A DNA stretch of 55,016 nt. Source: a virus (taxonomy: Duplodnaviria; Caudoviricetes). Below, in pieces: positions 3,952 to 30,095 of this stretch; position 1 is the stretch's first letter, and every line of letters begins with the position of its first letter. Location: positions 1 through 55,016 of IMG/VR virus record IMGVR_UViG_3300020202_001036; one strand, 5' to 3'. A program made the translations under genes and the position numbers. The notes beneath the pieces are model-generated. The model was given only the letters and a program-made list of their open reading frames with translations. It searched no databases and was not told the origin of the DNA.

Positions 3952-4286
3952 CGCCCGACCCCCCACATCTTGCGCACGCGGTCTCGAACCGATACGACGT
4001 TTTCAGCGACTGGTATGGCCTTGACGGTGGGTTCGCAGTGACCCAGTCTCCGCATCTCCTCTTGCAACGCATCCCGTGTCATCAGATACAGCTTCCCGTC
4101 TCGTGTGCAGTCGATGCGCCCCTCCCCCATGCGCCTCCTGACCGCTCTGCAGTGTCGCCGGGGCCCGAGCGGGGAATTTGCTTGGGAAACCCAGCTATCT
4201 CCATCCGCGGCGCGGAGCTCTCTGGCGAGCTCCCTCGCGATCTCGGCGGCAAGCGCCTTGCCGAGCGTCCCCAGGATTGAGTCCAA
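3948..4286 (-). CDS. Excisionase-like small DNA-binding protein
   Basis: GGAGG then TTG start at 4286; basic protein (RHCRAVRRRMGEGRIDCTRDGKLYLMTRDAL) directly upstream of int. Confidence 0.55.
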   Translation of the reverse strand: MDSILGTLGKALAAEIARELARELRAADGDSWVSQANSPLGPRRHCRAVRRRMGEGRIDCTRDGKLYLMTRDALQEEMRRLGHCEPTVKAIPVAENVVSVRDRVRKMWGVGR

Positions 4287-8310: not shown

Positions 8311-11300
8311 ATGCCCATTCGCACGTTCCCCTTCAACAGCGGCATAAATGGCGAGGTAGACATCCGTCTCCTCCCCGACGGGCTGCTCGCCGATGCGAGG
8401 AACGTCGAGCTGGACCGGCGCGGGCGCATCGTGGTGCGGCCGGGCTTTGCTGCGCAAGACACGACCGTTTACGGACCCGGCGGCGCGCTGGTGGCCTTCG
8501 ACCTGTTCACGCTGAACGACCGCCTTTTCGCCTTCGGCGACGCGCACGGCTACGGCTTCCCGTGCGACATCTACGAACTTCTCCCCGCGGGCTCAGCAGC
8601 GCGCTGGCGCCCGAGCTCGAGCAACAACGCAAACAGCCCGCGCCTGCCCCGCGCGACCAAGGTGCGCGAGATCGCGCGCCCGCCCGACCAGGCCGAAGGC
8701 GTCAGCAACTGGGGCTGCGCGGCATTCGGCGGCTACGCATGCCTGGCCTGGAACGCCTCGATCGGAGGCAGCCAGAGCGGCTACGTGCACGTGGTCAGCG
8801 CCGCCGACGACCAAACGCTCATCGTGCAGCGCATGAACACGGGCGACAACCCGCGGCTCTTGTTGCGTACGGTCGCGCTGTCAGATCGGTTTTTGATCCT
8901 CGGGACGACCGCCGCGGGCAACGAGCTCGACCTGGCGCGCTTCATCCCCGCGAGCGACGAAGCGGTCGCCAACGTTGCCCAGGACCTGTTTAGCGGAGGC
9001 GCGATCACGGTCTACGCGGCGGCACGCTGCGCCGGCTCCGACGAGTTCGTTGTCATCGCTCAGGTCGGCGCAAACCTCATCACGCGGCGCTTCAACTCAA
9101 GCGGTGTTCAGCAGACCCAGTACTCCAGCATCGCAGTCACCGCGGTCGCTGTTGCGATCGAGGCATCGGCGACGGCTAACCAAGTGGTTATCGGCTACAC
9201 CGCTGGGGCGCAAACAGCGGTGTTCGTCGCGTACAATCTGACCACGGGAGCTCAGATAGCCACGCGCACCCGGACCGAGTCGTTTGACTCGTTTCTGAAC
9301 GTCGGAATCGCTCGCATTAGTTCAACGCAACTCATGCTCGTCACGTCTATCGACGATGTGTCAGTGAGCGACCCCGAGCGCGTCGAAAAGGGCACGTGGA
9401 TTCCCAGCACGGACACGCTGGGGACGTTTGGCGCGTTCCGCGACATGAAGATGGTGAGCACGCCGGTCTTCGACGTCGAGACGTTCTTCGCGAGCCAATA
9501 CGGGAGCGCAACAGTCGGTGGGACACCGAACCTGCTGCTCAGCCTCGGCAACGACACGGGCGACGTCACGCCGCAGATGGCGAAAGACTTCGAGGTCGCG
9601 GACACCACGAGTGCTCTGCTGCCCGAGATCGCATTCGACGCGAGCACGGGGAAGTACTACTGGGCCAATGCGACGGCGAATCCGGACGGCACGACGACGC
9701 CGCAACTCACCGAGTTCGAGCTATCGTCGACCGAGCGGCGTCAGGTCGCGGTGCTAGGGAATCTCGCCTACATCGCCGGCGGTGTTCCACTGGTGTTCGA
9801 CGGACGAACCGTGGTCGAGAGCGGTTTCGTCGTCAGGCCGCGCATCATAAGCCTGACCGCATCGAACGGTGCGGGCGAACTCCTCGGCGGCGCCGCGTAC
9901 GACTACCGCCTGCACTGGGAATGGATCGACAGCGAGAACAACCTGCACCTCTCGCCGCCGAGCGCCATCTCGACGGTCACGCTGGGGGCAAACGACGATA
10001 CGGTGACGGGGCTTTGCTCGACCGCGCACTCGATGCGAAGCAACAACGGCGCCATCGCCGCTGGCAGCGCTCAGGCCTGCGTGCTGACGCGCACGCTGGC
10101 GACGAGAACGCAAACGTCAGCGACGCTGGCGGGCAGAGCTAGCGTGTCTCCACCAAGCGCGTCGTTGAATGGGTTGACGCTGTTCGTGCTCATCAGTGAC
10201 ACGACCGGGTACAACCTGTACACGATCACGTTTGATGCCGGGAGCGTTGACGCCGATGCTATCGCAGCAGACATCAATGCAGCAGTCAGCAGAGTCACCG
10301 CGACGAACGTGAACGGGCACATCGTGCTGACCGCAGATGAGGCCGGCGAGGGCGCTTTCTTGGAGGTGTCCGGCGGTACGGCGATCGATATTTTGGGTTT
10401 CGTCGAGTACGAAAACGACACCGGCACGACGACCCTCACCAAGGGCCAGAACTTTCAGCGCGCCGCGGTCGGCTACACGTCGACCACCAGCCTCGTCAGC
10501 GGCGCTTTTGTCTCGGTAGTCGACGTGCGAAAGGACCAAAGCGATCCCATCGTCGACACGGACCTGATTCGCCAGCAACCGCTCTACTCGAGCGGCATTT
10601 CGTCGGGCGCGCACCACGCGCCGACGCCGTCGGAATACGTCTGGGCGGGCCGCGAGCGCATCGTGATGAATCACCCGCGCCGGGCCCGATATGTCACGAG
10701 CAAGCTCGTGGTGCCGAGCGAGCCGGCAGAGTTTGCTGCGGAGGGATTTCCAGCCTTTACAGGCCAGGTCACCGGCGACATCGAGGGCTTGGTCGTGCTC
10801 GGTGACTCAATCGTGCCGTGGACGCGCAGGGAAATCTGGGAGGTGACCGGCTCGGGCCCGGCACGCAACGGCGTCGGTGAGTTTTTCGCCGCGCGCCGGG
10901 TCAGCAACGCAGGCGGGCTCGTTGCCGATGGCTGGCGCTCGCTGGTCGAGACCGACGCGGGAGTGTTTTTTCAACGCGAACCGACGCAACTCTGCATGCT
11001 GACGAAAGACGGCTCTGTCGCATGGATCGGGCTGCCCATCGAGGACTATCTCGAGGTCTATCCCGAGATCACGGCAGCCGTGTACGTGCCGAGTAAGCAC
11101 TCGGTGGCGTTCGCATGCCGCTCCACCGATGGGCTCGATGGCGGCATCCTGCGCTTTGACCTCGAGATGAACGCCTGGTTCTTCGACGACGTCGGCGCGG
11201 TGTCCGCGCTGGCAGAGCACCAGGGGCGGCTCGCCTACGTTCAGAGCGGCGTGGTGTTTCTCCAGGATGAGGCGCCAGGTGTCGGCACGTTCGTCGAATA

Positions 11301-11658
11301 CAGCCTCAAGACGAACATGTTTCAGGGGTTCAACGCGATCGGCTGGGGTCAGCTCAATCGCATCGGCGCGCTCGTTACCTATCAGGGCCCATGCACGGTC
11401 AACCTGTATCTGTCGGAGGACGGCACCGACTTCACGAACCTGATCGCGACGTGGACGCTCACGGATGCCGACTACGATCCGGGCGACCGCGAGATTCTGC
11501 TGAAGGATCCGCCCAAGCAGATGCAGGACAGCTTTGGGTTGCTCTTCGAGGTCACGCACAACGCGAGCAACTCGGAGGGCGTGTGGTTGCACGCCGTGGC
11601 CTTGGATGTTGACGGAGCGCCGGAGCTCGCACGCAAGGGGCCGGCGAAGAACCTTTGA
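8311..11658 (+). CDS. Tail nozzle / packaged-DNA stabilisation-like virion protein
   Basis: 1115 aa, beta-rich; N-terminal GINGEVDIRLLPDGLLADARNVELDRRG and beta-propeller-like C-half resemble podoviral nozzles (inference). Confidence 0.65.
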   Translation: MPIRTFPFNSGINGEVDIRLLPDGLLADARNVELDRRGRIVVRPGFAAQDTTVYGPGGALVAFDLFTLNDRLFAFGDAHGYGFPCDIYELLPAGSAARWRPSSSNNANSPRLPRATKVREIARPPDQAEGVSNWGCAAFGGYACLAWNASIGGSQSGYVHVVSAADDQTLIVQRMNTGDNPRLLLRTVALSDRFLILGTTAAGNELDLARFIPASDEAVANVAQDLFSGGAITVYAAARCAGSDEFVVIAQVGANLITRRFNSSGVQQTQYSSIAVTAVAVAIEASATANQVVIGYTAGAQTAVFVAYNLTTGAQIATRTRTESFDSFLNVGIARISSTQLMLVTSIDDVSVSDPERVEKGTWIPSTDTLGTFGAFRDMKMVSTPVFDVETFFASQYGSATVGGTPNLLLSLGNDTGDVTPQMAKDFEVADTTSALLPEIAFDASTGKYYWANATANPDGTTTPQLTEFELSSTERRQVAVLGNLAYIAGGVPLVFDGRTVVESGFVVRPRIISLTASNGAGELLGGAAYDYRLHWEWIDSENNLHLSPPSAISTVTLGANDDTVTGLCSTAHSMRSNNGAIAAGSAQACVLTRTLATRTQTSATLAGRASVSPPSASLNGLTLFVLISDTTGYNLYTITFDAGSVDADAIAADINAAVSRVTATNVNGHIVLTADEAGEGAFLEVSGGTAIDILGFVEYENDTGTTTLTKGQNFQRAAVGYTSTTSLVSGAFVSVVDVRKDQSDPIVDTDLIRQQPLYSSGISSGAHHAPTPSEYVWAGRERIVMNHPRRARYVTSKLVVPSEPAEFAAEGFPAFTGQVTGDIEGLVVLGDSIVPWTRREIWEVTGSGPARNGVGEFFAARRVSNAGGLVADGWRSLVETDAGVFFQREPTQLCMLTKDGSVAWIGLPIEDYLEVYPEITAAVYVPSKHSVAFACRSTDGLDGGILRFDLEMNAWFFDDVGAVSALAEHQGRLAYVQSGVVFLQDEAPGVGTFVEYSLKTNMFQGFNAIGWGQLNRIGALVTYQGPCTVNLYLSEDGTDFTNLIATWTLTDADYDPGDREILLKDPPKQMQDSFGLLFEVTHNASNSEGVWLHAVALDVDGAPELARKGPAKNL

Positions 11659-12571: not shown

Positions 12572-13162
12572 ATGACTCCAAACCAGGTCAGCGAGTTTCA
12601 GCGCGGTCGATTCGACTGGGAGGGCAAGCCCCTGCGCGTCGACGGCGACCTGGGTCCGCGCACGCGCTGGGCGCTGGCCATGTCACGGCTGGATTCGCGC
12701 CGCCAAGCCATCGTGGCCAACGCCTGCGGCTTCGTCGGGCTCACCGAGCGCGCAACAAATCGCGGGCCAGAGATCGACACCTGGCTCGAGCGCTGCGGAG
12801 CCCCGCTCGGATCGCCCTGGTGTGCCGCGTTCGCGAGCTGGTGCATCTCGGTGCCGGATCTTTCCTCCGTGAGGGAGGCCGGCGCGCAGACGCTCGGGCG
12901 CTCGCTCAGGTCCACCACGCTCATCCTTCCCGGCGACGTCATGTGGTTTCCTGCCGGCACGTGGCAGGGCCACTGCGGAATCGTCGTCGGCACCGGGCCC
13001 GGCGAGGTCGCGTGCGTCGAGGGCAACCACGGCAACCGCGTCGCACTGGTGCGGCGCCGCACTGCCGATGTTCGGATCGCAACGCCGCTGCCAGTCGAGG
13101 AGTTGCCGGGCATCCCGCCTGGGCTGCCGCTGGTGCCGGTGCAGCGGGAGGGGACGCGGTGA
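12572..13162 (+). CDS. CHAP-domain endolysin with N-terminal peptidoglycan-binding motif
   Basis: VDGDLGPRT; PWCAAFASWC; GHCGIV; EGN. Confidence 0.85.
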   Translation: MTPNQVSEFQRGRFDWEGKPLRVDGDLGPRTRWALAMSRLDSRRQAIVANACGFVGLTERATNRGPEIDTWLERCGAPLGSPWCAAFASWCISVPDLSSVREAGAQTLGRSLRSTTLILPGDVMWFPAGTWQGHCGIVVGTGPGEVACVEGNHGNRVALVRRRTADVRIATPLPVEELPGIPPGLPLVPVQREGTR

Positions 13163-13338
13163 CCAACGATCGATTCTCTTCCCTCGAGCGCGACCCCGAT
13201 GCGCGTCTGACCCGCGAGGAGATGCGCGAAGGGTGGCACTTCTGCACGGAGTTAGACCTTGGTCTGACGCAGGGCGAGCAGATCGATGGCGACGGGCGCT
13301 GCGCATGGTGCGGTTTTGACAAGCGGAGGGTGGCTTGA
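13159..13338 (+). CDS. Small Cys-containing hypothetical protein
   Basis: GTGA coupling; GWHFC..CAWC. Confidence 0.5.
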   Translation: MTNDRFSSLERDPDARLTREEMREGWHFCTELDLGLTQGEQIDGDGRCAWCGFDKRRVA

Positions 13339-13961
13339 AGAGCTCCAGCATCGTCAACGGCATCGACGTGACCGCCCACGGCGGCCTCATCGGGCGCTGC
13401 GTGCAGCACTACAAGCGATTCGTCGGCGGGTGCCTCGAATGGGAGGACCTGTTCCAGGCAGGCTGGCTCGGTGTGTACCACGCTGCTGAGCGCTTCGACC
13501 CCACACGGGGTTTCAAGTTTTCGACCTACGCGAACTGGTGGATTCGCGCCTTCATCCAGCGCGCCATCATGAACGAGCGGCGCACGGTGCGCGTGCCGGT
13601 TCATGCGCAGCAGAGCGCATTCGCACGCGGCGAGCGTCTGCATCTGGACGCGCTGTCACTCAACGCGCCGGTGAGTGCGGACCACCCAGAGGACACCTGG
13701 ATCGACCTGCTGCGAGCCGACAGCGACCCGGAGCGGGAGGCGATGGACAGTGACGCGGCCTCGCACATCGAGGCCGCCGTCGATGCGCTCCCAGACGTGA
13801 GCCGGCGCGCCATCAGAGGGCGTTTCTGGGGCGAGCACACGCTCAAGGAGATCGGCGACGATGTTGGCCTCTCGCGAGAGCGCATCCGCCAGCGCGAGGC
13901 TCAGGCGCTGGAACGGTTGGAGTTGAGACTCGCGACGCTGCAGCACGAGACGAGGCGATGA
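13335..13961 (+). CDS. Sigma-70 family RNA polymerase sigma factor (RpoD/RpoS-like regions 2-4)
   Basis: EDLFQAGWLG..AAERFDPTRGFKFSTYANWWIR..RTVRVPVH; TLKEIG..LSRERIRQRE. Confidence 0.92.
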   Translation: MKSSSIVNGIDVTAHGGLIGRCVQHYKRFVGGCLEWEDLFQAGWLGVYHAAERFDPTRGFKFSTYANWWIRAFIQRAIMNERRTVRVPVHAQQSAFARGERLHLDALSLNAPVSADHPEDTWIDLLRADSDPEREAMDSDAASHIEAAVDALPDVSRRAIRGRFWGEHTLKEIGDDVGLSRERIRQREAQALERLELRLATLQHETRR

Positions 13962-15267: not shown

Positions 15268-17183
15268 TGCCGAACATTCGCGGCTTTAAACCGCTCACGG
15301 ATCCGAATTGGATTTCACTGGAGTTTGACGACGGCACGATCTCGAATCCCGTCAACGATCCGACTGGCGAGTATCGAAAGCAGGTATCCGAGATCGCCCA
15401 GAAGATCGCCGGCGTCCCACCGAACCCGATGGCTGGCGCGACCGCAAGCCTCGGCGGCGAACTCACGCAGGGCACTGGTGAGGCGATGGCGCGCGCAGAC
15501 GTCGCGGCGCCCCTCGCCGCTGGGCCGCGCACGGGAGCCATGGCGGTTGCACCGGTGGCTCCGGCGCCTGCTCCAGCGGCCGCAGCAAACACGGATGCCG
15601 GTCTCATCAATCGGGCGCTCACCACCGCGATGAAGCCGCAGCCGGAAGGCGGGATGCCGCCCGGCGGAGCCGCTCCGGGCCTGGGCGGGGCATCGCGGCC
15701 GGCGACGCCTCCACAGGCGCCCACCGGCGCCAGTCTCGGGCCGCTCGTGACGACAGGCACAACGAGCAGCTGGCAGCGACAGAAGGGCAGCCAGACGAGC
15801 ACCAGCGGGCTAGCTGAAGCGGACCGACCCAGGGTCGAGGCCGCAAACGAGGGCGCCGTGAAGGCCGCCGAGACCGCGAACACCGAGGACTACGTGTCCA
15901 AGGCGACGCAGTACTGGCACGAGTTCGGCCGGCTCAGCGAGGACGCCAAGCGCCAGATCGCGCAGCGCGCCACGCTGCAGGAGCAGGAGCGCCGCTTCGA
16001 CGAGTCGCTGAACGCCGCGTACCGTCGCCTCGACGAGACGGCGGCGCGCCCCGTCGATCCAGCGCAGGCATTCGCTGGCGAAAAGGGCTGGTACGCTTTC
16101 ATGGCCGGCTTCGGCGACGTGCTCCGCAACGTGGGCTCGGCGCTCGCCGGCAAGGGCCCCGTCGCAGACCCCGGCGCGACGCTGGATGCGCTCGTCGAGC
16201 GCTCCGTGAACCTGCAGATGGCCCAGAAAAAGGCCGACTACGAGGCAGGGCGCATCGGCATCGACCGGCTCACCGCCGACCGCGAGACGGTGCGGCACCG
16301 CTTGGGTGTGGTACTCCAGCAACTCGCCACGACGGAGCTCGCGAAGGCTCAGACGGAGCAGGCCTATCAAGGCCTCGGAGCCGTCAAGGCCAAGGGCGAC
16401 GCGATCGTGGCCGATGCGCGCGCAAAGGCAGCGGCGGCGACGGCTCGGCAAGAGACCACCAGCACGACGGACAGCCAGGTCAGCGGCGGCACGACGCAGC
16501 GAGAGCGCCAGCCAGCAGGAGGCGGAGCCTCGCTCGAGCAACTGTCGAAGATTTTGGACATCGAGAAAAAGAAGCTCGAGCTCCGGAACGCGCAGCTCGA
16601 CAGCGCCACCACGGAGGATGTCTCTGCAGCTATCGGCAAGGAAGTCAGCCCGGAGCGGGCGAAGCAACTCCGCGACACGGTCAAAGAAAACGCCGTGCCG
16701 CTCGCAAAGCTCGGCTCGTTCATGCAGGGGATGAAAGAACAGCTCCGCATCAACGGTGCGACCGTGAATTGGGAAACGGGTCAGGTGCAGTGGCCCAAGG
16801 ATCTCAGCGGCGTCAGCGCAGTGAAGCCGTCGGACGTGCTCGGCAAGGACTTGGGCGAGGCGTTCAACACGAACGAAGACCAACTGCGAAAGCAGATGGC
16901 TTTCAACAAGGAACTGCTCACCACGGACACGACGGGTGCCGTTGCCACGCCGGAGCAAGCGGCAACGTTCGAACAAGTGCTGGGCGGAGCCGCGCGAAAC
17001 GAAGACGCTTACAAATCATCCGTGGAACGCGCGGTCAAGTATCTCGTGTCTCGCCGCCATGGGTTCCTGACGGCGATGGGCACAGAGGGATCGGCGCTTT
17101 ACAAGGCCACCGAAGACAAGCTGAGGAACGCGCAGCAAGCGAAGATGAATGAACTCGGCACGCTTCCGGAGGGGCGCCGATAA
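15267..17183 (+). CDS. Putative ejection protein 2
   Basis: TAATG coupling; 638 aa; coiled coil and central amphipathic segment. Confidence 0.6.
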   Translation: MPNIRGFKPLTDPNWISLEFDDGTISNPVNDPTGEYRKQVSEIAQKIAGVPPNPMAGATASLGGELTQGTGEAMARADVAAPLAAGPRTGAMAVAPVAPAPAPAAAANTDAGLINRALTTAMKPQPEGGMPPGGAAPGLGGASRPATPPQAPTGASLGPLVTTGTTSSWQRQKGSQTSTSGLAEADRPRVEAANEGAVKAAETANTEDYVSKATQYWHEFGRLSEDAKRQIAQRATLQEQERRFDESLNAAYRRLDETAARPVDPAQAFAGEKGWYAFMAGFGDVLRNVGSALAGKGPVADPGATLDALVERSVNLQMAQKKADYEAGRIGIDRLTADRETVRHRLGVVLQQLATTELAKAQTEQAYQGLGAVKAKGDAIVADARAKAAAATARQETTSTTDSQVSGGTTQRERQPAGGGASLEQLSKILDIEKKKLELRNAQLDSATTEDVSAAIGKEVSPERAKQLRDTVKENAVPLAKLGSFMQGMKEQLRINGATVNWETGQVQWPKDLSGVSAVKPSDVLGKDLGEAFNTNEDQLRKQMAFNKELLTTDTTGAVATPEQAATFEQVLGGAARNEDAYKSSVERAVKYLVSRRHGFLTAMGTEGSALYKATEDKLRNAQQAKMNELGTLPEGRR

Positions 17184-20100
17184 TGGCCGTACTCATAAAT
17201 AAAGAGACCGGCCAGGCCTTCGAGGTCTCCGACGACGAGGCGCCCCAAGCCGCGGCGGACATGGATCTCGTGCCGGCGACTCCGGACCAGATCGAGTGGC
17301 TGCGCAAACAACGCGAGTACGAAGCAAAGCCCGTCACTGAGCGGGCGCTGGAGTCTGTTCAGAGCTACGGCGAAGGCCTATCGCAGATAGGCGGCAAGGC
17401 GGCGCTGGCCGTTGGTGGCCTTGCTGGACTGCAGCCGATCCAGGGCCGCGAAGACGCGCTGTATCGCGCGCCGGACGTGCTCGAACGTCAGGAACGGCAT
17501 CCGATCGCTCATGCGCTCGGGGTGCAAACACCAGCCCTCACTCTGAGCGGAGCCGTTGGCGGGTTTGCGGGCATGGCCGCGGAGAGCGCCGCGGTTGGGT
17601 TGAGCGATGAATTGGTCGCGTCTACGCAAGAGGAGCGCGACTTCTCCGCCGGCGCCGCTGCGGAAGGCGCAGCAGTCGACCTGGCATTCAGCGCGCTGGC
17701 ACACGCTGCAACGGGTGTCGCGAGCCGCGTCGGCAACCTGCTGCTGTTCGGCACCGGCAACACGATGGCGCGCAACATCAAGCGCGGCCTCGACGAGAGC
17801 GCGGGCCCGGTCGTGCCCGATGACGTGCGCTTCGAGGGCCCGCTGCTCGAGGCGGAGACGCGGTCTGCGCGCGCCGCGGCGGCGGCCAGCCCCGGCATGC
17901 CCCCGGGGCCCGAGCGAGACGAGATGCTGCGCAGGGCGGCGCGAGACCTCAACCAGCAGGTGGAGACCGAGGGCGGCGACCTCTTCGAGCGCACCGCTGC
18001 GACAGCGCGCGAGAGCGCATCGGTGGGCGGCTCGGACGCGGTCGCTCGGCGAATCGACGACTTTCTGACCGAGACCACTCCGGCGCAGACGAGCTGGAGC
18101 GCGGACGCGACGCGAAAGCTCGACCAGATGCGTCAGGCGCTCGTGGCCATCGGCGACGAGCCCGCGGAGGCTGGCGTTGCTGCCCGGGCGCGAGAGACCG
18201 CCGACGAGGCCATCGCGGCGATCGACGGCGCCGCCGACTCCGCGGAGTGGTTCAAGGCGTCGGGGAAAGCGCGGGATCGCCTCGATGCGATCGCCGACGA
18301 GATCGCGGATTCCGACCTGCCCGAGGGCGGCGTCGTGGCCCGAGCCGTCGAGGACGCGCGCTCGTACCTTGAAAAGAGCCTGGCCGATCGAGCGCTGTTC
18401 GGCGCCGCGGCGGAGATGGACGCGGGGCTGCGCGGCGCGGCGCGAGACCAGATCGGCGCCGCGGTGCGCGCGAGCGGCGGCGACCTGCGTGCGCAGCTGG
18501 CGGCATTCGTTTCGGCCGACGCTGCCGAACGGGTCGTGATGCGGGCGCCGCTCGAGCAGGCGATCGAGGGCTTCGAAGATCTCGCGCGCGCCCACGAGCG
18601 ATTCGGAACGGCGCGGCCCAGGGATATCGAGACGCTACGCGAGAACGCGGCGTCGCTCCGTCGCGCCCTGACGTTGGCTGACGACGTTGGCGCAGCAACG
18701 CGAAGCGCTCCGGCGCCAGCCGCTCCGAAGGCTTCGCCGGACTCGCGCGCTGAGCCGAACTTTGCGCGTGCCGAGACCCTTGCGGGCCAGATTCGCCAGC
18801 GCGCAGCGGCGCACGCAAAACGCGCCGGTGTCCAGGCGGCGCAGAGGGTCGTGGACTACGCGGCGGGGCCAGGGCGCGCAGTGTACGACGACGCCGTCAG
18901 CGACGCGCTGAAAGGGGCGATCCAGACGGTCGGCGCGCTTGGGGGTCTCGCCGCAATGGGGCCGCCCGGGTTCGTCGCTGGCTGGCTCGGGGCTCGATCG
19001 ATCGGGAAGAAGATGGCTCCGAAGGTCGGGCAACAGATTCTCGATGCTGCCCAACGGTATGTCAAAACGCACGGTGCAGACACGGCCGGTGCTGCGCTGC
19101 TGGCGGCAGCGGCCCTGGGCGAGGGAGACGACGAGAGCGGCGACACGGACGCGCTGGCAGCCTCAATCGGAGGTCTCTTCTTCGCACGCCGGTTTGCCGA
19201 ACGCGCGCTGGGCGCCGCTGGCCGCGGCGCGAAGGCGTTGGGTGAAGGGGCCTATCGCGCCTCGGAGGCCGTCACGGGCGCCGTGGACGCAGCAACTGGC
19301 AAGGCTGCTCAGGCAGTGGGGAACGTCGCCTACAAGGCGGGACGAAAGGTCGGGGAAGCCACGGGCGCAGGGCTCGATGCCGTCGCAAAGGGCGCCGCGG
19401 ACGAGGACCTCGTCAAGGGCGCGATCCGGTCGGGTGTGCGCGACCCGAAGCGTTGGCTGGTTCGAAACACCCGTGGCCGCATCGCGGACAAGGCCGCCGA
19501 ATACTTTGGCCCGCGCATCTCGGGTGCTGCAGCGAGATGGCTGGAGAAACGGCACGGCAAGGCAGCGCAAGAGATTGTCAACGAAGCCATCAGCGAAACC
19601 GCGGCGGCCGGCAAGCGCGACGTCGCCTTGCTCGAGCAGCATTCGGCGCAGTCCGCGGCGATGGTCGAGGATGTTGGGGCCCAGATTCGAGCCGCGCTGA
19701 ACGAGACTCCCGAACAGAAGGCACGGGCACTCGAAGCTTTCCCGCAGCGCATCGGCGGCGATGCCCATGCCCAACGTCAGCTCTTGACGGCCGCTGTGGA
19801 TGAGTTGGCCGACGCGCTCGGCAAGGTCAGCGACGGAACCACTGCCAAAGTCGCGATCGATTTCGCCAACGCGGCGAAAGAAGCCATCATCAACGCTCGC
19901 ACGGCGCGCGATCGGTTTCGCATCGGGATGCAACTCACGGAGACGCTCGTTCACCACACGGCTGAGGTGGGCGATAGCGAGATGGCCAAGGTCTTCGGGG
20001 CGTACGCTGACAAAATGTGGGAGGCCATGGGTCAGCGCGAACTCTGGATGGGTGCGCGCGAGCTGGAGCGCGAGACGAAGCGACTCGCGAAGAAGCGCGA

Positions 20101-22180
20101 GTCGATTATCGCGAAGATCAGCGCTGGAGAAAAGCTGGGAATCGCGGCTCTTGTTGGCTCTGCTGCTGTTGACGACGACGAGACCGGTGCGGCGCTTGCT
20201 AGCGCTGGTGGGCTGCTCGCTGGAAAGCGTCTGATGCGTGAGGCCGCTACCGTGCCCCCGAAAGGAAAAGCGCGACGCCCCGACGGGCCCATTGCCGCGC
20301 TTGATGCACGCGACGCCACACCCACGAACTTCTACCCGAACAGCAACGCGGCTCGGAACGAGTATGGTGAATCGATGCGCGCGTATCGTGAGGCGCAGCG
20401 CGCTGACAACCTGAGAGCAGGAGAACTCGAAGGCGAGTTGTCGGACCTGAAGAAAGCGGGGCTAGTCACCGGCGCAGCCGGAGCGCTGGCGCTCGACGAC
20501 GACGACGGCGGGGCTGCGATGGCGGGGGCTGGGGCTCTGGGTCTCGCTGGCCGGCGTCTTGGGATGTGGAAGATCGGTCGCGAGTTGGTGAATCTTGACA
20601 ACGTCGCAGACCCTATCGCAAAGCTTCGCGAAATGGGCGCGAAGCCCGCTCTTTTGGAACGTGTCGCGTCACGGCTCGATGCCGCAAGCCGCCCCATTGC
20701 AGAGACAGCGATCGAGACAGAGCAACACGCAGCTGTCGCAGCAAAAAACCAGGCGCTTTGGAGCGACGCTGAACGCGAAGCCATTAGCGACTATCAGGGC
20801 GAAGGATACAGAGACGTAAACGAGGCGCTGCGCTTCGGCGAGCGAGCGCCAGCAGAGATTATATCCGCGCTCGATAAGGCAGTGGCTGCAGGCAACGTCA
20901 CTCCGGGCATGATCTGGCGCGGCGTCGACTTGCCGGAAGCAGAGATCGAGCGCTTAAAGCAGAGTTCTCACGTGATGTCTCAGGGCATCTTGAGCGGAGC
21001 GACCAACGACGCGCGCGCCCGCGTGTTTTCTCCAGGCGAGTACGGCAACAAGCCAGTCCTATTTCGTATCGAGCAAAAGACGGGTGTTCCTGTAGAAGAG
21101 AGTGGCGAAGCTGAAGTGCTCATGCGCCCAGGAACGAAGTTCGAAGTCGTAGGGGTTGGGCGAGACCGCTACGAAGGCGGTCCGTACACGAAGAACGACA
21201 AGGATTGGAAGTACATCGACACAATCGATCTTCGCGAGGTCGGTCAGGTTCCGGATAAGAGCCGACGGTCGTTCATGCGAAAGCATGGCGGCAAGGTTGC
21301 GGCCGGCGGAATCGTTGGTCTGGGTGCCGGAACGCTCGCTGTAGACGACGCCCAGGCGGCAGAGTTGGAGGACTCTCCTGACGATCGCACGATCGCCGCC
21401 CAGCGCATCCTAAGCATCGACGACGCGGCGACACGCCGGATCCGCCACACGGCGCGCGTGCTCTCTGGTCTCGCCGAGCCGCCGTCGCCAGAGGGTCTAA
21501 CGACCGCGCTCGGGCGATTCGGCGCCGAGTACGACGACCCGCGCTCCGCCTTCGAGGAACGGAAGACGATCCTGCAGAAAGCCGAGATCGCGCCGGCGCT
21601 GGTCTACGACGTGATCGCGGCCACGTTCGGCGACGTCGCGCGCGTGAGCCCGGAGCTCTATCAGGCCGCGTCGGCGCGCCTGCTCGATGGGTTCCGCTAC
21701 ATGCGCGAAAACCTGCCGCCCGAGGTCAAGACGTCGATGCTCTACCCGACCGGGCTGCCACCGAGCGAGAGCGCGATGCGCGACTGGGCCACGCAGTGGA
21801 ACACAGTGATGGACCCTGAGTCTGTGCTCGATGACATCGACCGCGGCACGGTGACGCACTTGCAGATCGAGACGCTCGAAGGCGCTCACCCCGATACGTA
21901 CCAGCAGCTGCGCACCGAGATCATCGCCGAGGTCGGCGCGAACTTCGCCGACATCCCGACTTCGACCAAGCAACAGCTCGACATTCTGTTCCAGGCCGAT
22001 GGCTTGGCGGGGCCAATGTTCAGCAGCGCGGCCGCGGTCATGATCGGGGAAGCGAGCCGCGCCGCATCGAAGCGAAAGCAGCCGGGGCCCGCCGACACCG
22101 GCGTCAACGATATCGAGGCGGCGCGAAGCGCGAACGGGCTCGAAGCGATACGCAGCAGCGTCACAAACAGGGCAACATGA
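17183..22180 (+). CDS. Large ejection-type polyvalent protein with ADP-ribosyltransferase domain
   Basis: 1665 aa, Ala-rich; ART signature Y..Y..VNEALR, IWRG, LSGAT, GEAEVL..PGTKFEV at 20759-21242. Confidence 0.8.
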   Translation: MAVLINKETGQAFEVSDDEAPQAAADMDLVPATPDQIEWLRKQREYEAKPVTERALESVQSYGEGLSQIGGKAALAVGGLAGLQPIQGREDALYRAPDVLERQERHPIAHALGVQTPALTLSGAVGGFAGMAAESAAVGLSDELVASTQEERDFSAGAAAEGAAVDLAFSALAHAATGVASRVGNLLLFGTGNTMARNIKRGLDESAGPVVPDDVRFEGPLLEAETRSARAAAAASPGMPPGPERDEMLRRAARDLNQQVETEGGDLFERTAATARESASVGGSDAVARRIDDFLTETTPAQTSWSADATRKLDQMRQALVAIGDEPAEAGVAARARETADEAIAAIDGAADSAEWFKASGKARDRLDAIADEIADSDLPEGGVVARAVEDARSYLEKSLADRALFGAAAEMDAGLRGAARDQIGAAVRASGGDLRAQLAAFVSADAAERVVMRAPLEQAIEGFEDLARAHERFGTARPRDIETLRENAASLRRALTLADDVGAATRSAPAPAAPKASPDSRAEPNFARAETLAGQIRQRAAAHAKRAGVQAAQRVVDYAAGPGRAVYDDAVSDALKGAIQTVGALGGLAAMGPPGFVAGWLGARSIGKKMAPKVGQQILDAAQRYVKTHGADTAGAALLAAAALGEGDDESGDTDALAASIGGLFFARRFAERALGAAGRGAKALGEGAYRASEAVTGAVDAATGKAAQAVGNVAYKAGRKVGEATGAGLDAVAKGAADEDLVKGAIRSGVRDPKRWLVRNTRGRIADKAAEYFGPRISGAAARWLEKRHGKAAQEIVNEAISETAAAGKRDVALLEQHSAQSAAMVEDVGAQIRAALNETPEQKARALEAFPQRIGGDAHAQRQLLTAAVDELADALGKVSDGTTAKVAIDFANAAKEAIINARTARDRFRIGMQLTETLVHHTAEVGDSEMAKVFGAYADKMWEAMGQRELWMGARELERETKRLAKKRESIIAKISAGEKLGIAALVGSAAVDDDETGAALASAGGLLAGKRLMREAATVPPKGKARRPDGPIAALDARDATPTNFYPNSNAARNEYGESMRAYREAQRADNLRAGELEGELSDLKKAGLVTGAAGALALDDDDGGAAMAGAGALGLAGRRLGMWKIGRELVNLDNVADPIAKLREMGAKPALLERVASRLDAASRPIAETAIETEQHAAVAAKNQALWSDAEREAISDYQGEGYRDVNEALRFGERAPAEIISALDKAVAAGNVTPGMIWRGVDLPEAEIERLKQSSHVMSQGILSGATNDARARVFSPGEYGNKPVLFRIEQKTGVPVEESGEAEVLMRPGTKFEVVGVGRDRYEGGPYTKNDKDWKYIDTIDLREVGQVPDKSRRSFMRKHGGKVAAGGIVGLGAGTLAVDDAQAAELEDSPDDRTIAAQRILSIDDAATRRIRHTARVLSGLAEPPSPEGLTTALGRFGAEYDDPRSAFEERKTILQKAEIAPALVYDVIAATFGDVARVSPELYQAASARLLDGFRYMRENLPPEVKTSMLYPTGLPPSESAMRDWATQWNTVMDPESVLDDIDRGTVTHLQIETLEGAHPDTYQQLRTEIIAEVGANFADIPTSTKQQLDILFQADGLAGPMFSSAAAVMIGEASRAASKRKQPGPADTGVNDIEAARSANGLEAIRSSVTNRAT

Positions 22181-24162
22181 CCGACAGCGCACAGAACTCC
22201 AAGCTCGCGAGAACGATCCAGGATTCGATCAAGAATCAAGACGCAGAGTGTTGGATGCTGCGAAAGAACCAAGTCGACGCTGCGCGCGACCTCGGCGACC
22301 TCGGTGAGCGAGCGATGATTGAGAATTGCTGGCGAGCGACCCGCGCCTATCGCTTCGCGTCCTTGTATGAGGGCTTTCGACTCACAAACCTGAGCAGCTG
22401 GGGCGCCGACCTCGACTGCCTGCAGGGCATCTTCCCCGGGCTCGAAGCGCCGGTAATCAAGAACCGATGCCGCTCGCTGGTGCGGGCCTTCATCAACAAG
22501 AGCTTCGCCAACGATTCGCCGCTGCCGCAGTTCATGACGAAGGGCGGCACGTTCGACCAGGTCGCCGCCGCCGAGGACCTCGACCAGGCCATCTGCGCCG
22601 AGTTCAAGGAGCCGCAGGGGCGCTTCTCGAACAAGGCCGAGATGGATCGGCATGGCGCGCTCATCGCGACCGCTGCGACTGGCCAGTACGCAGTCTTTTG
22701 CATCGACTACGACAACGCCACGAGACCGGAACTCGAGCTCGACGACACGCTGACGCTCGGCATCTACCGCACCCAGCAGTACGGCGCGATCCGCCACGTG
22801 GTGCGCACCGTGTGGATGCTGCCCGAAGAGGCGATTCGAAAGTTCGGCCTCAAGTTCCGCGACAAGATCTACGAGAACCTCGAGATGCGCGAGGGCAAGT
22901 TCGTTGCGGGCCAGGGTCTGAACCGCGGAACCATGCCCACCGCGAGCACGCTCACGTTGGCGCGTCGCGAGGTACGCATCGTGATGGGCTGGGCCGTCAG
23001 CGTTGGAGACGAGCCGGGGCGGCAGATGTTCGTGCTGAGAGACGGCACCGTGCTCCGTGACCGTGGCTACGACAAGCCTGCGCCCCCCATGGTGACGTGG
23101 GAGTACGAGCCCGAGATCGGCGGCGAGGGCGGGACGCCGCTCACCCAGCTCATCTACGTCCAGGCCATGTACCAGTCGCGCATCTTGCACGACGTCGACC
23201 ACGCGGAGCGCAACACGCCTCAGGTGGGGTGGGCCGTTCAAAAGGGCACGCAGGGTGCTAAGTCTGTCCAAGGGCAACTCGCGCAGTCGAAGGCGATACA
23301 GGTGTTCGAGATCGACGGACCGATCGAGGGCGCATTCAAGGTGTTCGAGGTCGCGAAGTTCTCCAAGGACTCACTCGCGCTCGAAGGCGTCTACGACCAG
23401 GCCCAGTTCGACGACACCGGCATCTCGCGCAACCACGCCACTGGCACGAAGGCAGCGGGCACGACGAGCGGCGTGCACGAGAGTCTCTCGGCGAGCTATT
23501 ACACCGAGTCGTTTGCCGATGCCGAGCGCCGATCCATCGAGATGCGCGCCGTCGGCGCGACCCGCATCATGGTCTGGGTCCTGCAGACGCTGGCAAAGCG
23601 CGGCTTCGAGCGCTGGGTCGGCGACAAGGCGTTCCGACGCAAGTTGCGCGGGGAAGATCTCGACCTCGACGAGAGCAAGTACATCCTCGAAATCCAGCCG
23701 GCGAGCGAGGAGAAAGACACGCCGAAAGGGCGGCTCCAGAAGGCCGAGAAGTGGATGGCGGATCCATCGGTGCCATTCACTGGGTCGGACATGGTCCAGA
23801 TGTTTCGGACCTACGACGACACGCGCATGGCCCAGCAGCTATACGAACTCGACGGGTGGGTCGAGGAGCAGATCGAACGCTACCGCAAAACGCCGCTCGC
23901 CGAGATGGCAAAGCGGGACTTCTACCAGCCACCAGAGCGCTCGATGCAGATGGATGGGCTAATGTCCGCGTTGCGGATCATGAACCTCGCCTATCTGCGC
24001 GCGAAGCAGCAGGGCATGCCGCGTCAGCGACTGGTCTTCTTCGAGAACTTTTGCAACGGCTGCATCGCGCTGATCCAAGAGGAGCAGCGGCGGCTCGCGT
24101 CGTTGCAGCAGCCCCCACCCGGCGCAGGAGCGCCACCACCCATGCCCGCACCGGCGGGATAA
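22177..24162 (+). CDS. Portal protein (putative)
   Basis: 661 aa; N-terminal VIKNRCRSLVRAFINK...PQF pattern; GISR..ATG.KAAG.TSG; Pro/Gln tail; precedes a scaffold-like gene. Confidence 0.7.
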   Translation: MTDSAQNSKLARTIQDSIKNQDAECWMLRKNQVDAARDLGDLGERAMIENCWRATRAYRFASLYEGFRLTNLSSWGADLDCLQGIFPGLEAPVIKNRCRSLVRAFINKSFANDSPLPQFMTKGGTFDQVAAAEDLDQAICAEFKEPQGRFSNKAEMDRHGALIATAATGQYAVFCIDYDNATRPELELDDTLTLGIYRTQQYGAIRHVVRTVWMLPEEAIRKFGLKFRDKIYENLEMREGKFVAGQGLNRGTMPTASTLTLARREVRIVMGWAVSVGDEPGRQMFVLRDGTVLRDRGYDKPAPPMVTWEYEPEIGGEGGTPLTQLIYVQAMYQSRILHDVDHAERNTPQVGWAVQKGTQGAKSVQGQLAQSKAIQVFEIDGPIEGAFKVFEVAKFSKDSLALEGVYDQAQFDDTGISRNHATGTKAAGTTSGVHESLSASYYTESFADAERRSIEMRAVGATRIMVWVLQTLAKRGFERWVGDKAFRRKLRGEDLDLDESKYILEIQPASEEKDTPKGRLQKAEKWMADPSVPFTGSDMVQMFRTYDDTRMAQQLYELDGWVEEQIERYRKTPLAEMAKRDFYQPPERSMQMDGLMSALRIMNLAYLRAKQQGMPRQRLVFFENFCNGCIALIQEEQRRLASLQQPPPGAGAPPPMPAPAG

Positions 24163-27399: not shown

Positions 27400-28848
27400 T
27401 TGAGCCCCAACGCAACATGGCACGAGGATTGGCGCGACTGCTTCAGGGAGTACGAGCCGCGCGTCGATCTGACGGGGCACCTGCACCCGAAGCAGTTGGC
27501 TTTCAGGACCGATCCGAGCTTTCTCCGCGTGCTGCACGGGACGCGGCGCAGCGGCAAGACCGAGGTGATGTGCGTCGAGGCCATCGAGGTTGCCGACATG
27601 TTCCCGGGCGAGACCGTGCCCTGGATCATGCCCACGATCGGCATGGGCCGAGACATCGTGTTCCCCAAGATGGAGGAGCTCAGCACCAAGTTCGACCTTG
27701 GCCTGACCATCAACCGCGGCGACTTCAAGATCCACACGCCGAGCGGTGGCGTGATCCAACTCTTCGGGCTGAGCACGAAGCCCGAGGCGGAGAAGGGGCG
27801 CGGCAAGCGCTATCCCCTCGTGATCGCCGACGAGGGCGGCGCGTACCCGAACCAAGACCTGCTGAAGCTTGCGCTGGACGAGACCTTTGGCCCCGCAACG
27901 GCGGACTTCCGTGGTCTCGGGGGCCGCGGAATCGTCGTGGCGGGAACAGCGGGATACGAGCCCGACTCCTACTTCGAACGCCTCGTCGGCGGCAACTCGC
28001 ACGTGAGCAAGCTGGGCGCCTCGGTCCATTTCATGCGGATCTGGGACAATCCGTTTTTTGCGGGCCGCGAGCAGATGATCATCGACGCGCACTTGCGCGA
28101 GAAGGGGCTCGCGGCCAACGATGCCGGCTTCCGGCGCGAGTGGCTCGGCGAGTTCTGCTCGAACACGGAGGGTCTCTGCTACCAGCGCTGGAACGGCGCG
28201 CTGCTGCCGCGGCACATGATCCCGACGGGCGGCTACACCGTGATGGGCCTCGACTTGGGCCGCCATCACCCCTGCGCCTGGGTCATCGTGCGCTTCGTCG
28301 TGGTCGAGACGGTCATCGGCAACACGCTGCGCAGCGTGCACCACGGGCACGTCATTGCGAGCTTCGAAAAGACCGAGTGCGGGCTCGAAGAGATCGCGAG
28401 CATCACGCGCAAGCTCACGCAGGCCTATCACGTCAGCCACATCGCGGGCGACTCGGCGGGACTCGGGGCCACGATCATCGACGACCTGAAGACCGTCTAC
28501 GGACTCCCGATCGTCGCGGTGAAGAAGCGCGGCGACAAGTCGGGCCGCATCTGGATGATGGACTCACAGCTCGGCGCGGGCACGCTGCACGTTCACGAGG
28601 GCTGCGATTCGCTGGTGCGGCAGCTCAGGACGGTGCCTTGGGATGAGCGGAGAAAAGACCACCACCCACGTTTCAGTGACCATTCCGCCGATGCGTGCCA
28701 CTATAGCCTCACGCTCTCGCGGCAGCACGACCTCGAGGAGGAGTTGCCGCCCGAGCCCGGCACGCCTCAATGGTATGCTGCTCAGGAGAAGCGCGATGAA
28801 GAACTCACGCTGGAGTATTCTCGACACCGTCAGCAGCGCGCGGCGTGA
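27400..28848 (+). CDS. terL: Terminase large subunit
   Basis: HPKQ, Walker A GTRRSGKT, Walker B LVIADEGG, GLDLG, DHSADA. Confidence 0.92.
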   Translation: MSPNATWHEDWRDCFREYEPRVDLTGHLHPKQLAFRTDPSFLRVLHGTRRSGKTEVMCVEAIEVADMFPGETVPWIMPTIGMGRDIVFPKMEELSTKFDLGLTINRGDFKIHTPSGGVIQLFGLSTKPEAEKGRGKRYPLVIADEGGAYPNQDLLKLALDETFGPATADFRGLGGRGIVVAGTAGYEPDSYFERLVGGNSHVSKLGASVHFMRIWDNPFFAGREQMIIDAHLREKGLAANDAGFRREWLGEFCSNTEGLCYQRWNGALLPRHMIPTGGYTVMGLDLGRHHPCAWVIVRFVVVETVIGNTLRSVHHGHVIASFEKTECGLEEIASITRKLTQAYHVSHIAGDSAGLGATIIDDLKTVYGLPIVAVKKRGDKSGRIWMMDSQLGAGTLHVHEGCDSLVRQLRTVPWDERRKDHHPRFSDHSADACHYSLTLSRQHDLEEELPPEPGTPQWYAAQEKRDEELTLEYSRHRQQRAA

Positions 28849-29537: not shown

Positions 29538-30095
29538 TTGTTCGTCTACGTCATCACCAATTCCGTCAACGGCAAGGTTTACGTCGGCAAGACGATCGCT
29601 CCCGAGAAGCGATGGGCACAGCACCAGTCCGTTGCGATGGCTGGGAAGGCAGGGCCACTGTATGACGCGATCCGGGAGGAAGGCGCTGCCGCATTCGAGG
29701 TTTCGGTAGTTGAGGAATGCGGCTCGGAAGACGAGGCCTTCGATGCCGAGAGGGTATGGATCGACCGGCTAGCGGCGACTGACCCGGACCACGGGTTCAA
29801 CCGATGCATTGGCGGCAACGGCCCGTCTGCGCTGGGCGATCATCGGTACCGCCACATCACGGCTGAGACGTGCTGGGAGCTTTACTCCGCGGGCGTCGCG
29901 GCCCCTGAGATCGCCAGGCGTCTTGGTGTCGCCTCGTACCAGCCAATCTACAGGCTGCTGAAGCGCGCTGGGTACCCCGTGAGGAACGCCGGTCGTGTCA
30001 GGAACGCTGCGGCTGGGCACGTCCTTCGTGACGCTCGGGATTCTCACTCGCCGGAGTGTCGCGCCGCCCTTGACAGCGCGCGGGGCTCCTCATAA
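29538..30095 (+). CDS. Free-standing GIY-YIG homing endonuclease with C-terminal HTH
   Basis: FVYVITNSVNGKVYVGKT..KRWAQH..E..GFN; APEIARRLGV. Confidence 0.88.
   Translation: MFVYVITNSVNGKVYVGKTIAPEKRWAQHQSVAMAGKAGPLYDAIREEGAAAFEVSVVEECGSEDEAFDAERVWIDRLAATDPDHGFNRCIGGNGPSALGDHRYRHITAETCWELYSAGVAAPEIARRLGVASYQPIYRLLKRAGYPVRNAGRVRNAAAGHVLRDARDSHSPECRAALDSARGSS

Follow-up and report, generated by a model that had tools for sequence, protein, structure and literature searches.

Polyvalent proteins are giant polypeptides of phages and conjugative elements that join conflict enzymes, ADP-ribosyltransferases (ARTs) among them, in combinations that vary between relatives; their presumed destination is the host cell, which they would reach together with the DNA (Iyer et al. 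2017, PMC5512222). They are the closest described kind to the subject of this report: P0001, a protein of 1665 amino acids (aa) encoded on the plus strand at positions 17183..22180 of the virus record IMGVR_UViG_3300020202_001036 (gene limits from the open reading frame (ORF) list and translation). The window – the whole stretch of DNA that was analysed – is the complete record, 55,016 bp in length with ~66% G+C, and the phage is uncultured and temperate. Comparison of P0001 with its relatives indicates that a repeated hydrophobic-acidic-hydrophobic hairpin divides the protein into cassettes, and that the hairpins are very probably the junctions at which cargo units have been inserted, deleted and exchanged.

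The resemblance to polyvalent proteins is partial. P0001 contains one recognisable enzyme domain and two unmatched segments, and its homologues contain two to four ARTs plus other cargo; unlike in polyvalent proteins, however, cargo in this family is nearly all of one enzyme class (up to four ARTs per protein), and no MuF, peptidase or other signature domain was found by Pfam in P0001 and 18 homologues. The main text describing polyvalent proteins never uses the word 'transmembrane', uses 'hairpin' only for beta-hairpins inside domains, and names no hydrophobic-acidic hairpin among domain boundaries (PMC5512222). MuF polymorphic toxins of temperate phages provide a further parallel, in that a conserved delivery part is combined with variable toxin parts (PMC5576092). 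MuF, CdiA and Rhs proteins nevertheless have one variable C-terminal domain, whereas P0001 has several internal cassettes between two scaffold domains; its boundary, unlike theirs, is a hydrophobic hairpin of ~32 aa, and no MuF (Phage_Mu_F) domain was found by Pfam. In CdiA (VENN) and Rhs a short demarcation motif marks the start, or exchange point, of the variable part. T4 Alt, which like the enzymes described below is an R-S-ExE phage ART, is a separate protein with a capsid-targeting peptide that travels in the phage head and enters the cell with the genome; the ARTs of the present family are instead embedded in a scaffold protein that would itself have to be packaged.

The scaffold comprises two conserved domains (all parts of P0001 lie on the plus strand). 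The N-terminal domain (aa 1-633; 17183..19081) is represented by a jackhmmer profile and includes a Gly/Ala arm, Pro-Pro and a second arm (aa 582-604), an arm-P(P)-arm element that is present in 57 of 146 proteins examined. The C-terminal domain (aa 1388-1665; 21344..22177), which consists of 278 residues and is all-alpha according to an AlphaFold2 model, identifies a family of 1086 cluster representatives at E≤0.001: in the full-length proteins listed the match sits at the C-terminal end, and lengths are mostly 700-1100 aa. Comparisons were made with 19 homologues of P0001 obtained by a word-index search and with a wider family set of 167 proteins, 151 of which match the N-domain profile. In basal or shorter members (about 780-950 aa) the N and C domains adjoin directly; the two are adjacent in most of the ~1086 relatives, and in P0001 the cassette array sits between them. 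Given this adjacency, and since segments A and B of the array (see below) are found in only 14 and 11 of the 167 family proteins, respectively, aa 634-1387 represents an insertion between conserved domains. No Pfam or PHROG model was found for the scaffold family, and the N domain has no Pfam, PHROG or PDB sequence match. The AlphaFold2 model of the C domain is confident (predicted local distance difference test score (pLDDT) 87.8, predicted template modelling score 0.78), and comparison of its fold with PDB (Foldseek best E 0.56; VIA-align wide best Z 3.8) and with BFVD (best E 0.30) revealed nothing above chance.

A scan of P0001 for hydrophobicity peaks gave three pairs (aa 634-647/657-668, 985-997/1002-1014 and 1092-1104/1111-1122) and a single peak (aa 1372-1387). 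Each pair forms a hairpin in which an uncharged run of 12-13 residues, rich in Ala, Gly and Leu, is followed by a loop composed only of D, E, G, S and T, a second uncharged run of 12-15 residues and a basic pair. Hairpin 1 (aa 634-668; 19082..19186) has arms of 13 and 12 residues on either side of an acidic loop of 10, followed by RR; in hairpin 2 (aa 985-1014; 20135..20224) arms of 12 and 14 residues enclose the four-residue loop DDDE and precede KR; in hairpin 3 (aa 1092-1123; 20456..20551) arms of 13 and 15 residues enclose DDDD and precede RR. The single peak is a terminal arm (aa 1372-1387; nt 21296-21343) which, together with DDAQAAE, extends to aa 1394 (21296..21364). This 'half copy' is counted as a first arm on comparative grounds, because one arm of P0005 aligns both to arm 1 of hairpin 3 and to the terminal arm.

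Shuffled sequences rarely reproduce this layout. A strict rule was applied that requires two uncharged runs, each of 9 or more residues, separated by a loop that is no longer than 16 residues, includes two or more D/E and is free of K/R. By this rule P0001 contains three copies, compared to a mean of 0.09 in whole-protein shuffles and 0.15 in shuffles of 60-aa blocks; three or more copies were obtained in 0 of 5000 whole-protein shuffles and in 1 of 5000 block shuffles. At the level of residues the similarity of hairpins 2 and 3 is significant (z 8.6 in full shuffles; P=0.0035 in within-block shuffles), that of hairpins 1 and 2 is marginal (P=0.0015 and 0.037 in full and within-block shuffles, respectively), and that of hairpins 1 and 3 is not significant (P=0.09 and 0.59); nor does the half copy significantly resemble any hairpin (P=0.16-0.70). 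The original prediction, which listed four related motifs, is thus sound with respect to positions and layout – three hairpins and a single arm – and less so with respect to residues: the copies resemble one another mainly in the arrangement of blocks, likeness of residues being clear for hairpins 2 and 3 only. At the DNA level the motif copies share no repeat that rises above background: the strongest match, between hairpins 2 and 3 (45 nt at 71%), does not exceed the chance pairs seen in this G+C-rich gene.

The segments between the motif copies in P0001 are unrelated to one another. Segment A (aa 669-984; 19187..20134), which may be cargo or spacer, is helical in a low-confidence model and has no family match; segment B (aa 1015-1091; 20225..20455) is short, conserved and rich in Pro, Lys and Arg, and is also found in P0020. 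The last is the ART cassette (aa 1124-1371; 20552..21295), an Alt-like R-S-ExE enzyme with a match to phrog_802 ('Alt-like RNA polymerase ADP-ribosyltransferase') at E 6.5e-7 over aa 1165-1261. Across the family, several inter-hairpin segments match no known family.

The case for junctions comes from differences among relatives. In the homologues, similarity to P0001 breaks at aa 626-670, 1000-1019, 1082-1126 and 1365-1400, and relatives that are 60-94% identical differ by whole cassettes whose edges lie in hairpins. In the clearest case, P0002, identity to P0001 over aa 1-1100 is 92-100% in the majority of 25-residue windows (68-88% in the first window and in windows 676-750 and 1001-1050) and 84-100% from aa 1401, but only 12-35% across aa 1126-1375, that is, from just after hairpin 3 to the terminal arm: a different ART cassette has replaced the one that P0001 carries in this interval. 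Hairpin 3 is the left edge of the swap (identity falls from 92% to 69% to 13% per 25-aa window over aa 1076-1150) and the terminal arm is the right edge. In P0010 an ART cassette has been inserted inside the loop of hairpin 1; what remains is a complete hairpin at 918-951 and, at 649 to about 680, another pair of arms whose loop is not acidic. P0005, P0007 and P0008 are without the ART cassette, and in these arm 1 of hairpin 3 runs directly into GDAxAAEP. In P0012 unrelated cargo takes the place of segment A, and in P0004 and P0010 extra ART cassettes directly follow arm 2 of hairpin 2.

Cargo also recurs in other slots and on other scaffolds. A second insertion site, located after position ~240 of the N domain, is bounded by or adjacent to hairpins in P0109, P0116, P0129 and P0157. 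The cargo of P0012 (aa 662-984) is found at this site in P0109 (aa 365-683; 39% identity, E 3e-64), where it lies between two full hairpins, and again directly after a hairpin in P0018 (aa 1267-1465; 29% identity): it constitutes a second recurrent cargo type, one with no Pfam, PHROG or PDB match. By eye it contains a Gly-rich motif followed by Lys, which may be reminiscent of kinases. The non-ART cargo of P0012, P0013 and P0019 gave no PDB sequence match at E≤1, bar one at chance level, and no PHROG match; the ParB-like and kinase-like motifs noted in it, again by eye, are possible resemblances.

Along its entire length the ART cassette of P0001 shares 49-52% identity with cassettes of P0016 and P0122; the C domains of these two proteins are only 26-30% identical to that of P0001 and their N domains give no BLAST match. 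Base composition changes in the same region. The G+C content of third codon positions (GC3) is 0.57-0.68 over codons ~960-1380 (20060-21330: hairpin 2, segment B, hairpin 3 and the ART cassette), compared to 0.85-0.93 from codon 1411 (C domain) and 0.74-0.89 in seven other genes; for the ART cassette it is 0.64, as against 0.80-0.86 in the scaffold. Total G+C is 0.632 for 20001-22000 and 0.697 for 18001-20000. Both the identity of the cassettes and the drop in GC3 are compatible with cassettes moving from one scaffold to another, although the former might instead reflect a stronger constraint on the ART.

The hairpins themselves are retained at the same places in all 11 close homologues (P0002-P0012): hairpin 1 is conserved in place in P0002-P0009, P0011 and P0012, and is split in P0010. 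Among the distant homologues strict hairpins are present in P0016, P0017 and P0019, and P0013-P0015, P0018 and P0020 have none under the strict rule. In the wider family they accompany length, being found in all six proteins that reach 1700 aa, in 3 of 12 proteins of 1300-1700 aa and in 4 of 129 shorter proteins (1/43, 2/57 and 1/29 by class, at least two of which look like other Gly-rich loops). Inter-motif content is not invariant among the homologues (1016-2647 aa), and the comparisons support three elements of the original prediction: that unrelated segments, the last of them an ART, lie between the motif copies; that the architecture is one of modular cargo cassettes; and that the motif is a place of cargo exchange, as seen in the P0001/P0002 swap, the P0010 insertion and the arm-to-arm deletions of P0005, P0007 and P0008.

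R-S-ExE ARTs are defined by a catalytic Arg, a Ser(-x-Ser/Thr) and Glu-x-Glu. A profile built from the P0001 ART finds 38 ART domains in 25 of the 167 proteins, which fall into 24 clusters at 50% identity. In the alignment R1246 is present in all 38, S1271 and E1309 each in 36, and E1311 in 37, while in P0001 the residue two positions after S1271 is not S/T (no S-x-[ST] match). Against the Pfam family ADPrib_exo_Tox (PF03496) the P0001 domain scores 16.4 bits, below the cut-off of 23.4; domains in P0010 (32.1), P0011 (26.1), P0016 (38.5) and P0018 (29.4), and further cassettes in P0122 (47.4), P0127 (27.0) and P0135 (24.9), score above it. ADPrib_exo_Tox is also the only family returned by a Pfam scan of P0001 (E≤0.01) and of 18 homologues, bar a weak, below-cut-off match to PF01129 (an ART family) in P0011. 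In an AlphaFold2 model of aa 570-1400 the ART cassette is the sole confidently folded part. Single proteins may carry two to four ART domains belonging to different 50%-identity clusters (P0122, of 3027 aa, P0016, P0004 and P0011); the maximum, four different ARTs in one protein, is reached in P0122.

The association between ARTs and arms is asymmetric. An uncharged run of at least 10 residues lies within 60 residues after 32 of the 38 ARTs, compared to 22.9% of random positions in the same proteins (nominal P=2e-15, the proteins being related; distinct arms give 27 of 33). Because a run within 120 aa upstream accompanies only 13 of the 38, the tightest unit is an ART followed by an arm. This shortage of upstream arms weighs against a simple arrangement of hairpin-bounded cassettes, as do the additional ARTs in P0004 and P0010, after which segment B comes next and the first arm lies 79 and 93 aa downstream. 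It must also be borne in mind that the counts of hairpins against length and of arms after ARTs include related proteins, so that their P values overstate independence.

The terminal arm is a feature of the scaffold: of 149 full-length family members, 102 have an uncharged stretch of 12 or more residues in the 110 aa that precede the C domain. In 24 of the 149, a few of them doubtful, the arm is followed by small-x-small-(small)-acid (DDAQAAE in P0001). P0003, P0005-P0007, P0009, P0010 and P0012 have a basic residue before the arm and GDAxAAEP after it; other near relatives have close variants (DDAQAAE in P0001, DAKAEAP in P0008). A basic residue, 16-21 uncharged residues and AxA make up the layout of a Sec signal peptide and its signal-peptidase-I site, although in these proteins the position is internal.

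An explanation that accommodates these observations would be as follows. A two-part phage scaffold (aa 1-633 and 1388-1665) would have had an array of cargo cassettes built between its parts, the junction module being the hairpin: an arm of ~13 aa, an acidic loop of ~5 aa (net charge ~-4), an arm of ~14 aa and basic residues. Cargo units, mostly distinct Alt-like ARTs, would start after the basic flank and end in the first arm of the next hairpin. The protein would be packaged in the virion and would leave with the DNA, as podovirus ejection proteins or T4 Alt do; the hairpins would stay soluble in the producing cell and in the capsid, and at the inner membrane of the host would become oriented so that the acidic tip faces outwards, with the basic flank and the cargo on the inner side, such that the ARTs are tethered or threaded next to the site of DNA entry. 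That whole cassettes have been inserted, deleted and exchanged between related phages at the junctions is the part demonstrated by comparison. For the explanation as a whole – scaffold, junction hairpins, virion delivery and membrane-active joints – we consider the chances of its being right and of its being wrong to be about equal.

What the hairpins do beyond marking junctions was approached through a survey of the scaffold family, in which 42 distinct hairpins (84 arms) were measured. Arms have median lengths of 13 and 14.5 aa and consist of 34% Ala, 24% Gly and 18% Leu; loops are 2-12 aa in length, have a mean charge of -4.2 and share nothing fixed apart from D/E; and in 39 of the 42 arm 2 is followed by a net basic flank. 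Among nine relatives mean pairwise identity is 81% for hairpin 1 (89% for its arms) and 73% for hairpin 2, compared to 69% and 79%, respectively, for the N and C domains: the hairpins are as conserved as folded domains. M13 procoat and the TH8-TH9 hairpin of the diphtheria toxin T-domain are likewise apolar-acidic-apolar hairpins with a basic outer flank, and such a layout can be oriented across a membrane by membrane potential or pH. The likeness is one of layout (a design analogy only), for in these at least one arm is ~19-22 residues long, whereas in the hairpins of P0001 both are ~13-14. Type VI secretion system (T6SS) effectors also place hydrophobic or Gly-rich segments beside effector domains: those of the prePAAR transmembrane-domain class carry membrane-crossing segments next to their toxin domains (PMC7773334), and in the DNase Tde1 a Gly-rich N-terminal region, which resembles tape measure proteins, carries the enzyme across the inner membrane of the target cell (PMC10240207). 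In both cases the segments sit at the N-terminus, rely on chaperones or adaptors and have to be prevented from inserting in the producing cell; that of Tde1 acts through a glycine zipper, with GxxxG as a requirement (PMC7773334, PMC10240207); the arms of P0001, unlike them, are internal, repeated and acidic-tipped, and are not enriched in GxxxG.

Our preferred reading of the hairpins is that they are marginally hydrophobic, membrane-active joints, a preference that is tentative and somewhat likelier to be mistaken than correct. Several measurements run counter to it. The classical threshold for a membrane segment, a Kyte-Doolittle mean of at least 1.6 over 19 residues, is reached by one of the 42 hairpins (median 1.11), and the maximum anywhere in P0001 is 1.29; arms of the median lengths given above fall short of what a canonical membrane helix needs. 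Of the 84 arms 29 contain GxxxG, compared to 30.9 in shuffles, and neither small-xxx-small-xxx-small (54, compared to 61.0 in shuffled arms) nor GxxxGxxxG (3, compared to 4.7) is enriched. The flank before arm 1 is not basic, being net positive in 9 and net negative in 12 of the 42. Finally, the hairpins are of low confidence in the AlphaFold2 model (pLDDT about 25-40), although the model of aa 570-1400, based on a 16-row alignment, has a mean pLDDT of 44 and is therefore uninformative as to hairpin geometry. Terminal arms reach the 1.6 threshold in 5 of 12 homologues sampled. A bolder version, in which the hairpins are self-inserting, potential-oriented translocation devices that carry or tether ARTs across the inner membrane as well as in-frame exchange points, and the whole is a multi-warhead polymorphic effector system in a previously unrecognised family of ejection proteins, strikes us as improbable; were the translocation reading true, one ejected polypeptide would deliver up to four different ARTs at the site of DNA entry.

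Much of the same evidence bears on two simpler accounts. The hairpins might be passive joints – low-complexity linkers or duplication scars that tolerate in-frame recombination and have no membrane or processing role – and the Ala/Gly/Leu arms, which lack any periodic motif beyond composition, their low confidence in AlphaFold2 and the weak residue similarity between copies other than hairpins 2 and 3 would all be expected of such joints. Mere tolerance is hard to square, however, with arms of hairpin 1 that are more alike in nine relatives than the N domain is, with a charge layout (acidic loop, basic flank) that is kept in distant scaffolds, or with the fact that no DNA repeat is long or similar enough for recombination within one genome; we judge passive joints unlikely. 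Alternatively, the hairpins and the terminal arm with its GDAxAAEP might be processing sites of a polyprotein, cut by a phage or host protease (for example, of signal-peptidase-I type, after AxA) to free the cargo proteins. Discrete cargo units, each bracketed by the motif, would suit such a role, as would the signal-peptide-like terminal arm in the 24 full-length members that have it. A precedent exists in that proteolytic release of domains has been proposed for polyvalent proteins (PMC5512222). The variation of the loops in length and sequence, with nothing fixed beyond D/E, suggests instead a requirement for charge and not a recognition site; in addition, no peptidase domain was found by Pfam in P0001 or 18 homologues, and no protease of the S78, S49 or ClpP families was found in the genome by searches that detected their controls, which is weak evidence given that the portal of this phage also went unrecognised. 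Processing accordingly seems to us distinctly unlikely. In sum, of the natures originally proposed for the motif itself, membrane hairpin, processing site and, at the level of DNA, recombination handle are not established, the first with a single hairpin at the Kyte-Doolittle threshold and the second without a fixed loop sequence or, on that weaker evidence, a protease.

Whether the protein travels in the virion is a separate matter. Its gene lies in one plus-strand block with those for the large terminase (TerL) and a capsid-like protein, the synteny is conserved and the cargo is Alt-like; from gene position and cargo we infer that the protein is probably delivered in the virion. Like T7 gp16 and P22 gp16, it is large and for the most part helical, and its gene lies shortly upstream of tail and terminase genes; T7 gp16 also carries an enzyme domain (PMC8954989). 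Ejection proteins of the gp16 type are matched mostly by size and synteny, and T7 gp16, although soluble, contains putative membrane regions which, on refolding, would cross the inner membrane (PMC8954989). P0001 shows no detectable homology to P22 gp16 by hhalign, and the ejection-protein review mentions no swappable cassette array, the word 'cargo' being absent from it (PMC8954989). Two results tell against virion delivery: no known virion protein was matched in Pfam, PHROG, NCBIfam, named phages, PDB (sequence or fold) or BFVD by the scaffold or its neighbours, and a 26-sequence scaffold profile gave hhalign probabilities of 0.8% with P22 gp16 and 0.1% with P22 gp20. The fold of the C domain compared to a pre-ejectosome entry gave a VIA-align Z of only 3.2, which is no match. 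A P22_gp16 cluster returned by an Atlas feature search (score 0.93) points towards an ejection protein as a lead only, and hhalign does not support it. Since the portal of this phage escaped recognition, negative results of family searches carry little weight. The idea that the protein belongs to an ejectosome is not established by sequence, profile or fold.

A different virion role would be that of a tape measure protein of a long-tailed phage with embedded enzymes, the hydrophobic segments being the usual membrane-active parts of such proteins. Weak matches to phrog_167 (tail length tape measure protein) in the homologues P0158 (E 2.1e-8), P0020 (0.0028) and P0100 (0.0062) point this way, as does the resemblance, already mentioned, of the Gly-rich region of Tde1 to tape measure proteins (PMC10240207). 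P0001 itself, however, has no phrog_167 match, and among close relatives whose neighbouring genes are collinear the protein varies in length between 1394 and 2074 aa, which is difficult to reconcile with a ruler of tail length. The two upstream genes encode proteins of 434 and 638 aa and not a small chaperone pair, and the sole hint as to morphology is a podovirus-type capsid match of the capsid-like gene (NF033394, E 4.8e-4), itself weak and far below the cut-off. We regard a tape measure as very unlikely.

Phage proteins that enter with the DNA make the first move against host defences and transcription, and how such cargo is organised, diversified and passed through the inner membrane is poorly understood. 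The family described here displays a simple grammar: two scaffold domains and a slot between them, filled by hairpin-bounded cassettes. Polyvalent and polymorphic virion effectors are the known part of this picture; what we rate as new is an internal, repeated boundary module on an uncharacterised scaffold family, and in the literature searched no description was found of a hydrophobic hairpin as a module boundary in phage multi-effector proteins. Should the hairpins prove active at membranes, nature would offer in them a compact module that moves enzyme domains across the bacterial inner membrane; should they be junctions only, they would still furnish a sequence rule for finding new injected effectors. 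With up to four divergent Alt-like ARTs per protein, it is natural to ask which targets in the host are modified when the phage enters.

The gene lies within a long plus-strand block, in which genes for a lysozyme-like protein (12572-13162; phrog_1259, E 6.9e-8) and an RNA polymerase sigma-factor-like protein (13335-13961; phrog_351, E 9.7e-42) are followed by genes for proteins of 434, 638, 1665, 661, 378 and 321 aa and then by TerL (27400-28848, plus strand) and the capsid-like gene; a GIY-YIG-type homing endonuclease (29538-30095; phrog_314, E 4.3e-22) lies between the terminase region and the capsid-like gene. An integrase (2299-3966) and RecT plus an exonuclease are encoded on the minus strand. 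A 1115-aa ORF (8311-11658) has a coding-type codon composition (GC3 0.82) and is unmatched in Pfam, PHROG, NCBIfam and PDB sequences; the neighbouring genes of 434, 638/691, 661, 378, 321 and 776 aa likewise have no Pfam, PHROG or NCBIfam match, and the Atlas feature search named nothing for the 638-aa neighbour. One homologue of the latter was found in a metagenome-assembled genome of the Polyangiaceae, a lead only to a myxobacterial host. ORFs on the strand opposite the gene (for example, 19163-19957) were rejected as real genes, their mirrored codon-position G+C marking them as shadow frames, and Rfam gave no matches over 17000-22400.

The phage is very remote from cultured phages. Searches of 50,697 phage records with the gene and protein (blastn, tblastn) gave no match, the portal family was unrecognised in family searches, and the capsid-like protein had no tblastn match among named phages; TerL had three, at best ~26% identical (Halorubrum and Rhizobium phage terminases). 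A search with the C domain for related loci returned none in genome contigs and one in viral contigs. At that locus the flanking genes are collinear with those of the window and of near-equal length (638/640, 661/655 and 378/389 aa), and the counterpart of the 1665-aa protein, despite the conserved synteny, is 2089 aa long.

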